From: Gemmatimonadota bacterium
GTDB taxonomy: Bacteria > Gemmatimonadota > Gemmatimonadetes > Gemmatimonadales > GWC2-71-9
Assembly (NCBI GenBank): GCA_039591655.1
Contig: JBDHDE010000027.1
Coordinates: forward strand, 1-35,872
Length of the DNA: 35,872 nucleotides
Direction of reading: 5' to 3'
Position 1 is the first letter of the stretch. The number at the start of each line of letters is the position of its first letter. Positions 26,201-29,200 of the stretch are shown piece after piece. The position numbers were made by a program.

Positions 26201-29200
26201 CAAGCCCTCGCCGGGGACGGTCTATCCCACCCTGCAGTGGCTGGAGGACGAGGGACTGGTGCGGAGCAAGGATCTGGAGGGCAAGAAGGTCTACGAGATC
26301 AGCGACGCGGGTCGGCAGTTCCTGGAGGAGAACAAGTCGGTGGTCGAGGAGATCTTCGACCGTGTGGAGGAGACCATCGACTCCGTCCTCAGCGACCCGA
26401 TCCCGGAAGTGACCCGCCTCATGGGTCGGCTAGTGTCGCAGACCTACCGGTCGGCGTGGCGCTTGCGTGAGGACGCCGAGAAGCGGGGCAAGGTGGCGGA
26501 GATCCTCGAGCGGACGCTCAAGGACCTGGAGGTACTAGTCTCCCAGTAGCGGGAACCCCGTCAGGGGACGCCGTGCGGCGGGTCGTCGTCACGCTTGAGA
26601 CGACCCGCCTGCTGCAACGCGCGCCGCAACAGGAACTCGATCTGGCCGTTCACGCTGCGGAGCTCGTCACGCGCCCAGCGCTCCAGGGCCTCATGGACCT
26701 GCGGGTCCATGCGGAGCAGGAAGGGCTTCCGCTGTGACACGATACGCCTATTGGTAGAGCGTGCCCGTGTTCACCACCGGCTGGGTGCCCCGGTCCGAAC
26801 ACAGCACCACCAGCAGGTTGCTCACCATCGACGCCTTCCGTTCCTCGTCCAGCACCACGATCGCCTTGTTGGACAGCTGATCGAGGGCCATCTCCACCAT
26901 TCCCACGGCGCCGTCCACGATCTTGCGCCGCGCAGCGATGATGGCGCTCGCCTGCTGGCGCTGCAGCATCGCGTGGGCGATCTCCGGTGCGTAGGCCAGG
27001 TGGCTGATGCGGGACTCGATCACCTCCACGCCCGCCTTGTCGAGCCGGTCTTGGATCTGCACCTGGAGCTTCTCTGCGATCTGGGGAGTGTGGGTGGTGA
27101 GAGCCATGTCGTCCGTCTCGTGCGCGTCGTACGGGTAGTTCACGGCAAGCCCCCGCAGGGCCGCCTCACTCTGCACGTGGACGAACTCCTCGTAATCGTC
27201 CACCTCGAACAGGGCCTCGGCGGTGTCGATCACGCGCCAGACGACCACGCAGGCCACCTCGATCGGGTTGCCCGTCCGGTCATTCACCTTGAGCTTGCCG
27301 GTCTCGAAGTTGCGGATGCGCACCGAGACCTTCCGCTTCGTGTAGAACGGGTTGGCGTAGCGCAATCCCGGCATCTTGCAGGTGCCTACGTAGGAGCCGA
27401 ACAGCTGCAGCACCCGGGCCTCGTTGGGGTTCACGATGAAGAACCCGGCATAGGCGATGGACAGGACGGTGGCCACCACGCAAGACGCGATGATGCCGAA
27501 GACCGACTCGGCGACGATTGCCCGGACCAGCCACCAGATGGTGAAGGCGCTCGCCGCGAGCAGGACGAACAGGGCGAGGTAACCCGATGCGACAGCGCGC
27601 TGCTTCTCGCGGATCATTGAAACCTCCTGCGGACAGTATCAATATGATATCATATTGATACTGTTACGTCAAGGGCTACGCCCGGACTCGGGCGAGCGTC
27701 CCGACAGCCGCGCGGCATGAATCAGGTACACTGCCGCCGCCAGCAGCAAGGGGGAGGAGTAGGTGCCGGGGATGATCCGCCCGGTGGCCAGCGATGCCCC
27801 GAGGTGGCCCAGGCCGTTCACGAACATGAGGCCGCCGAGAGCGTAGGACACGGGGCGCATCCAGCGCCAGCCGCGGAACGCGCCTACCGAGAGCGACAGC
27901 AGGAGCACGATCCCCACAACGAGGCCGCCCAGCCAGACATCGAACCGGAACACCGGTGGGAAGGGGAGCCCCAGGCGCTGGCGCATGCTCTGGGCAAGGG
28001 GATTGTAGAACGCGAGGAACTCCCCGGCGGCCTCATCCGCCACGTGTATCGCCAGCGCAAGGGCGAGAGCGATCCAAGCCATCCCCCAGTGACGCATCAG
28101 GCGTTGAGGATGCGGAGGTAAGCCTTCCACGGACCCACTGCGTCGGCGTACTGCCGCGCCATCGCCCGCGCGACCTGCGCGAGGTGACCCAGGTCGTGGG
28201 CCACCCAGGTAGAGAGGTGCTGTCTCAGGGTGACCCGCCCGAGCTCCGGGTGGCGGCCTGTACGGTCCAGGTCCGCAGCGCTCAAGCTCCACCCCGTGAG
28301 CGTCTCCAGGTTCGCTTCCCGCAGGGCGGCGAACTCGTCCAACAGCTCCTCGAGCGGCCTTCCCTTGGACGACTCGAACTGGGCGAAGCGATCGAACGGC
28401 TCGAACGTGCGGTCCTCGCCGTGCTCCAGGATGATCCGGGCTCGGGGGATCCAGTCGGTGCGCTCGCCGTGTATCAGGTGCCCCACGACGTCGTACGGAC
28501 TCCACGTGTGGGGACCCTCGGTGGCCTTTGCCCAGGGTGCCGGGAGGTCGCGCAACAACGCGCCAAGCGTGCCTGGCGTGCGTGCCAGGATCTCGAGCGC
28601 GTCGTCGAGGCGGTACTGCATGATGGATCGGCTCCCACAGCGCGCCGGCCGGCTTGCGCCGGCCGCCGGCGGGTCTAGCGGCGCTCGTAGACCGTGGTCT
28701 GGCCTTCCTCGTCGAAAGTGAGGATTTCGTAGTGCTCGGCGGGTCGGTCGGGGCTCTCCATGCCCGGCGAGCCGATGGGCATCCCCGGGACGGCGATGCC
28801 GATGACGTCGGGCCGCTCCTCCAGCAGTCGCCGGATCACGTCGGCCGGGACGTGGCCCTCGACCACGTACCCGTCAACCACTGCGGTGTGGCAACCCTCG
28901 AGTTGACGCGGGACAGCATGCTCGGCCTTCACCGACGGCAGATCGGCCACTTCGTGCGTCGTGACCTCGAAACCATTCGCTTGTAGGTGAACCACCCACT
29001 GGTTGCAGCAGCCTCACGTCGGGGTCTTGTAGACCACGACTGCGGGGCTCTGCGCGCTCGCCTGTGTGAAGACCACGCCGGCGGCGGCGGCACCCGTCGC
29101 CAATACGGCGCCCAGCAGCAGCGCGCGACCTTTCGCTGTCATCGGTTCCCCCCTGGTCTGAGTTGGCGGCACCGCTCGGAGCGACGCCGTCCCGTTACTA

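Follow-up and report, generated by a model that had tools for sequence, protein, structure and literature searches.

A predicted selenocysteine form of CopG, with selenium in the copper-binding CxCC motif, in Gemmatimonadota and other bacterial phyla

The window analysed here, the whole stretch of 35,872 nucleotides of contig JBDHDE010000027.1 from a Gemmatimonadota bacterium, carries the gene of a CopG homologue whose internal TGA is, with very little doubt, read as selenocysteine (Sec), its product being a predicted selenoprotein. Considered as a whole, the evidence makes it likely that this product is a Sec-CopG, probably exported, in which the copper-binding CxCC motif has selenium in place of its first cysteine. 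CopG of Pseudomonas aeruginosa (Hausrath et al. 2020, cited through PMC7558416 and PMC8456105) is, according to the available text of these two sources, a periplasmic, thioredoxin-like protein whose CxCC and two Met residues bind a tetranuclear copper cluster; roles as a Cu oxidoreductase and in the transfer of copper have been proposed for it.

Reading frame and family membership

The CopG/DUF411 gene (28675..29142, minus strand) is a single ATG...TAG frame read from 29142 to 28675, with 155 codons for 155 residues and only one internal TGA at 29014..29016 (minus strand), as the first-pass annotation of this DNA had claimed. This codon, found in the context VYKTPT-TGA-GCCNQWVVHL, would encode Sec43, the first position of a U-G-C-C motif. 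Under translation table 11 the frame is split in two, one part ending at the TGA and the other being a 106-aa frame with a GTG start (28995-28675). The read-through protein matches Pfam DUF411 (PF04214) with E 2.1e-27 and 95 bits against a gathering score of 27, in agreement with the membership assigned earlier, and the DUF411 gene is single-copy in the genome. Alignment to P. aeruginosa CopG (PDB 6WIS/6WJE; E 8.8e-36) pairs the TGA with the first Cys in CGCC, and the Sec versus Cys pattern previously described at this site was reproduced independently. No NCBIfam family (June 2026) reaches its cut-off for the read-through protein, which concurs with the earlier statement that it has no model there. 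The best-scoring named relatives are Gemmatimonadota.

Contigs from two public runs, X1 (depth 13.9) and X3 (depth 4.5), span the TGA and carry it unchanged, which argues against an assembly slip, with both runs belonging to one study that is possibly the source of the genome and hence not being independent of it; runs X5 and X6 gave no useful coverage of the site. The public runs in which this sequence is best represented are labelled marine sediment, and none of the runs listed with it is an RNA run.

The downstream hairpin and the selenocysteine machinery

A predicted bacterial SECIS element lies at 28983..28999 (minus strand), its stem GTGGGTG/CACCTAC closing a GTT loop at 28992-28990. The loop begins 21 nt after the TGA and the 7-bp stem 14 nt after it, so that the distance of 21 nt given in the first-pass annotation for the start of the stem holds for the loop only. 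Bacterial SECIS elements are described in the available text of PMC13188914 by a loop of 3-9 nt with a G, a stem of 4-16 bp, a spacing of 16-37 nt and an MFE <= -7.5; in our own implementation of this rule the hairpin falls within the consensus, with a stem of 7, loop GUU, spacing 21 and -10.3 kcal/mol. Compared with shuffled sequences it is no more stable (z -0.03). Rfam searching returned nothing above chance, and a promoter/terminator scan gave nothing assignable to the CopG gene.

The signal is better appreciated by comparing TGA with Cys forms of the family, for which 229 loci were gathered, 228 mapped and 215 found distinct (143 TGA and 72 Cys), kin among them not being independent. The codon at +8, which forms the loop, is G[G/T]N in 86/143 TGA genes and in 1/72 Cys genes, a change that turns an Asp/Glu-rich position into Val/Gly. 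While the loose bSECIS rule separates both groups weakly (124/143 TGA versus 41/72 Cys), separation sharpens when a G[GU] loop is required (112/143 versus 19/72) and when a stem of at least 5 is added to it (107/143 versus 6/72), the stem cut of 5 being one among three rules tried. Restricting the TGA genes to those from protein searches, so that all loci are chosen alike, gives 27/29 versus 1/72 for the +8 codon and 25/29 versus 6/72 for the strict hairpin. Positions that are free with respect to the protein also follow the stem: the silent third base of the Leu codon is A or G, and thus paired, in all 86 TGA genes with G[G/T]N and in 53/72 Cys genes, the rare CTA Leu codon is used in 26/86 and 4/72, respectively, and the next protein-free pair is kept in 84/86 versus 28/72, with two C-G swaps and one T-A swap. 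The earlier opinion that the hairpin separates TGA from Cys forms only weakly (56/108 versus 8/21) should therefore be revised, the distinction by the +8 codon and the paired silent positions being stronger.

The +8 loop codon is lacking in 57/143 TGA genes, some of which have a loop at 17-18 nt, and in 19/143 not even the loose rule detects a hairpin. Nine Vicinamibacterales loci (L128, L143, L151, L167, L170, L171, L180, L182 and L196) show a GGUCUCA/GGUCUUG loop at 17 nt, and in an Acidobacteriota group (L141, L149, L166 and L172) the canonical hairpin is often absent.

The genome, 95% complete, contains selA (contig C49), selB (C7) and selD (C3), all above profile cut-offs, together with a tRNA-SeC(tca) gene on C33, so that the four components earlier attributed to it were all recovered; selD itself carries one TGA. 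A script scan for TGAs with coding-like flanks and a G[GU]-loop hairpin downstream gave 13 candidates in this genome. The CopG gene is not among them, since it did not pass the filters, even though its anatomy is the same. Six candidates read through into PrdB-like, ArsM, GSU3128/AhpD-like, SelW and two AhpD families, and one further candidate we take, from its motif, to be FdhA; the TGA at C35:3042, another of the 13, was rejected as a Sec codon, since it lies where two ordinary genes meet. With selD included, the genome thus has no fewer than eight further likely selenoprotein genes (C6:64128, C20:30651, C20:44299, C29:403, C33:10478, C51:430, C52:14299 and selD on C3), all of known kinds (PrdB-like, ArsM, GSU3128/AhpD-like, SelW, two AhpD, FdhA and SelD). 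In these eight genes G[GU] loops lie 17-22 nt after the TGA on stems of 6-8 bp, and the hairpin of the CopG gene resembles them, as had been noted before. SelB would, almost surely, bind the G-U-U hairpin 21 nt downstream of the codon and insert Sec.

Sec genes were also sought in other carriers of the TGA form, covering 100 of the 119 loci listed below and 99 genomes. selA was detected in 90/99 (in one as a fragment under the cut-off), and the nine carriers without it include six with selB and five with tRNA-Sec (>=66 bits), 7/9 having one or the other. At least one gene of the machinery is consequently present in 97/99 carrier genomes, neither selA, selB nor tRNA-Sec being found in the remaining two (G422 and G489). 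For reference, the available text of BSepDB reports the Sec pathway, by a two-gene rule, in 16,621/64,762 species. selA occurs in 320/401 genomes drawn from the phylum and in 101/151 of a draw of Acidimicrobiia, well above the 26% quoted for bacteria, and most selA-positive genomes still have the Cys form of CopG. Within the phylum, a tally made by hand from the 150 matches listed of 349 gives selA in 21/21 carriers and 109/124 others, a difference that is not significant (p 0.13) because selA is common there.

Distribution of the TGA form and decoding of the codon

The family was found in 317 of the 401 genomes of the phylum draw, and 22 of the 150 family matches listed of 349 have a TGA, one each, with TAA or TAG in none of the 150. 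Relatives read from protein searches (110 in total, 80 metagenomic and 30 genomic) comprise 29 with TGA, all at the same codon and free of other stops, and 81 with TGC or TGT at the site; among the distinct non-TGA loci the site is Cys in 72/72. A pattern scan of GTDB, left open to TGA, TAA, TAG and TGG at the site and requiring Y/H-K/R-x-P-x before it, which misses forms that do not have it, yielded at least 119 TGA family genes among the 120 matches listed (118 at E <1e-10, one incomplete), a set overlapping with the phylum draw. TGG and TAA are absent from the site in these 120 matches, and the single TAG is a chance match outside any gene. Cys codons are no farther from TGG than from TGA, and yet TGG does not occur in these matches, so that error or decay does not explain the pattern. 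By record title, where labels of metagenome-assembled genomes may be wrong, carriers belong to about ten phyla, with Acidobacteriota, Gemmatimonadota, Chloroflexota, Rokuibacteriota/Methylomirabilota, Binatia, Actinomycetota, Pseudomonadota, Myxococcota, Tectomicrobia and Nitrospinaceae represented, which confirms for the matches listed the wide spread first suggested.

In a draw from a proteobacterial class no stop was observed in 48 matches outside the centre genome. Genomes flagged as unpublished enter these tallies (G057, G097 and G157 in the phylum draw, G097 also as the Cys locus L113; G422 and G490 among the nine carriers without selA; G687 and G789 in the proteobacterial draw), but none of the conclusions rests on them alone. 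Among 151 genomes of Acidimicrobiia the family was present in five, all with the TGA form and selA-positive. These TGA forms lie in a long-branched clade (L237-L241, L119, L140 and L157), in a phylum without outer membrane. Two genomes hold two TGA copies each (L170 with L204, and L214 with L219).

On a tree of 214 rows and 122 columns, calculated after masking the +8 column, 16 switches between Sec and Cys are required, of which well-supported branches force only 3. In the 3 independent Sec/Cys pairs the SECIS trait goes the expected way in about 2 and the opposite way in none, which is not significant. Close Sec/Cys sisters, or Cys forms nested in Sec clades, are seen for L100 versus L103, L041, L055/L056/L059/L109, and L046 versus L194; the Cys rows among them are devoid of the G[G/T]N loop codon, and they constitute natural pairs for experiments. 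The W-V-x-H-L segment sets much of the stem in both Sec and Cys forms, the hairpin being latent in the family, so that the loop arises by changing the single codon at x, and this one-codon switch likely explains the alternation of both forms on the tree.

Two ways of reading the codon other than as Sec deserve consideration. The TGA could be a true stop, resulting from nonsense mutation or from an error of assembly, or else the gene could be split, with the 106-aa GTG frame as product; TGC or TGT does become TGA by one base change, and gene callers do give such truncated products, as illustrated by three of the best 120 database homologues that start after the TGA site (P0007, P0022 and P0105). 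However, the same codon recurs in 143 distinct loci with no stop at other Cys positions and neither TGG nor TAA at this one, the downstream frame and its ligands are intact, the hairpin is paired at silent sites, the contigs of two runs carry the TGA, and the short product would have neither signal peptide nor CxCC. The codon counts in particular largely refute this explanation, which we regard as highly improbable. Hardly any more credit is due to UGA being read as Trp, Gly or Cys through an altered genetic code or a special tRNA. Cys-inserting tRNA-Sec variants exist, and reassignment of UGA is known in some bacteria, but TGA terminates 373/750 long coding-like frames in this genome, indicating that its code is not reassigned; the only TCA tRNA found is tRNA-SeC, tRNA-Trp having the anticodon CCA, Trp does not occupy the site in any of the matches listed, and SelA and SelD are intact. 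Codon counts, the Sec machinery of the carriers and the SECIS signal thus sustain the Sec reading originally put forward.

Predicted copper ligands, gene context and relation to known selenoproteins

The N-terminus (29053..29142, minus strand) is signal-peptide-like, with K4/R6, a hydrophobic stretch and a cleavage site, assigned by eye, between ASA and Q; these features suggest export to the periplasm. Downstream of the TGA, on the same strand, Cys45 and Cys46 of CxCC (29005..29010) and the Cys84-His85 motif (28888..28893), aligned to the CH of CopG, are conserved in 215/215 loci and His97 of EGH (28852..28854) in 214/215. The pair Met121-x6-Met128 (PGMPIGSPGM, 28759..28782), a motif named for CopG/CutG in the available text of PMC8456105, retains each Met in 141/143 TGA and 72/72 Cys forms. 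The structure predicted for the mature part, with Sec modelled as Cys and an alignment of 58 rows, has a pLDDT of 95 and superimposes on CopG 6WJE with TM 0.93, rmsd 1.3 Å and E 7e-17 at 47% identity, matches to thioredoxins/glutaredoxins being at E ~0.01; residue 43 is situated in the model directly before helix 1 of the thioredoxin-like fold. The designation CopG-like in the first-pass annotation was therefore right about the family and too weak in its wording, the protein being a close homologue of CopG with all Cys, His and Met ligands kept.

On these grounds a CopG-like copper role, suggested by homology, is rather probable overall. After its putative export, the protein would take up the thioredoxin-like fold of CopG, in which helix 1 would start at U43, would quite probably bind a multi-copper cluster via U43/C45/C46, C84, H85, H97, M121 and M128, and might, as in CopG, interconvert Cu(I)/Cu(II) or hand copper over. 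A selenolate is a softer and more easily ionised ligand. A point against this picture is that in Rhodobacter capsulatus CutG is partly dispensable, its Cys and Met motifs not being needed for CutO activity (PMC8456105, available text).

The immediate neighbours are, upstream and co-oriented, a peptidase M64 (29198..30652, minus strand) and, downstream and also co-oriented, a DinB/YfiT-like thiol transferase (28097..28621, minus strand), both identified by profile search. No copper-resistance cluster was found around the CopG gene, and domains of a CopA-type ATPase and a multicopper oxidase are encoded on other contigs. The M64-CopG-DinB order is kept in close kin only, with the DinB neighbour conserved in 8 loci, and no conserved neighbourhood was found beyond them. 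Two DinB/thiol S-transferase genes (28097-28621 and 30675-31187, minus strand) flank the M64-CopG pair; elsewhere in the window, at 20017-22386 (plus strand), an ECF sigma factor-like gene, a likely anti-sigma gene and a PDZ-like protein stand in a row, as judged by eye. A survey of flanks of 1.5-3 kb, with names assigned to 53 cluster representatives and to 150 nearest frames, detected copper-type neighbours at 6/104 TGA loci of at least 1.5 kb, a lower bound: multicopper oxidase at L123, L138, L166 and L191, P-type ATPase at L129, L191 and L192, and CusF with a cupredoxin at L123. Gene context is thus compatible with a copper role, which it neither fixes nor excludes.

A different function for the same selenoprotein has also been weighed, namely that U43-x-x-C46 serves as a periplasmic selenol-disulfide redox site of the thioredoxin/glutaredoxin type, for instance in cytochrome c maturation, copper being secondary. 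A UxxC at the N-terminus of helix 1 is indeed the usual Sec position in selenoproteins with a thioredoxin fold (PMC13188914, available text), weak matches to Glutaredoxin (PF00462, 21.8 versus a cut-off of 22.9, E 2e-4) and Uxx-star (NF041212, 14.3 versus 66, E 0.037) cover residues 35-74, and cytochrome c, Ccm or DsbD-type genes are the nearest neighbours at 7 TGA loci, about as many as for copper. On the other hand, C45, C84, H85, H97, M121 and M128, which would be superfluous for a plain disulfide reductase, are kept as fully as in Cys forms, the structural match to CopG far exceeds that to thioredoxins, and TGA forms also stand beside multicopper oxidase, CusF and P-type ATPase genes, all of which leaves this alternative rather unlikely and the copper-binding Sec-CopG preferred.

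With P. aeruginosa CopG and R. capsulatus CutG the protein shares CxCC, CH, EGH, Mx6M and the signal-peptide-like N-terminus besides its identity and fold, and it differs from them in its first Cys being a TGA followed by a SECIS-like hairpin; moreover, CopG/CutG are often linked to cueO, copA and cusCBA, as far as the available text goes, in contrast to the few copper neighbours of the TGA form. According to the available text of PMC13188914, thioredoxin-fold UxxC selenoproteins (Trx, Grx, DsbA/DsbG-like and Uxx-star) have Sec at the same first position of CxxC, and likewise show sporadic Sec/Cys alternation and a canonical bSECIS; the TGA CopG is distinguished from them by its extra Cys/His/Met copper ligands and by their profiles remaining below cut-off. 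Sec would replace a metal-binding Cys also in several predicted metal-handling selenoproteins of that source (CopZ-family 2Fe-2S, SO_0444 Cu/Zn transporter, E1-E2 ATPase UxxC, DUF1573 UGC and MerT), of which DUF1573 has, as does the TGA CopG, a UGC motif with an export signal; these families are unrelated, and none is given there with a multinuclear copper cluster.

The 119 prokaryotic selenoprotein families of PMC13188914 (May 2026), in the available text, include no DUF411, PF04214 or CopG, and neither do the main text and four supplements of deep-Sep, where DUF1573 was present as a control; the main text of BSepDB, available without its family table, and a term search of SelCysML gave no DUF411/CopG either. 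Full-text literature searching, which spanned sources other than subscription journals, bioRxiv supplements and NCBI records, returned nothing for DUF411 with selenoprotein and, among the papers listed, nothing relevant for CopG/CutG with selenocysteine and no natural copper-selenolate protein. Neither U nor X appears in the best 120 database homologues, in a database that may store U as C. Together with NCBIfam of June 2026, these catalogues, in their available text, show no entry for a Sec CopG; of the "new selenoprotein family" announced by the first-pass annotation, it is the predicted Sec-bearing form that would be new, the protein family itself being already known.

New selenoprotein families are often added in this field, and the Sec CopG is unusually widespread among them; it would represent a broad addition to the bacterial selenoproteome, in genes that gene callers cut in two. 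There is about an even chance that it constitutes a natural and widespread enzyme whose multinuclear copper cluster includes a selenolate, that is, a periplasmic Cu-Se centre of sediment and soil bacteria from about ten phyla, repeatedly gained and lost through the latent W-V-x-H-L SECIS by a one-codon switch. Unlike most predicted selenoproteins, its Cys form has a solved structure with a copper cluster, so that the exchange of a sulfur for a selenium ligand is directly testable, and the natural Sec/Cys sister pairs, along with the one-codon SECIS switch, would offer a clean model of selenoprotein origin and reversion.
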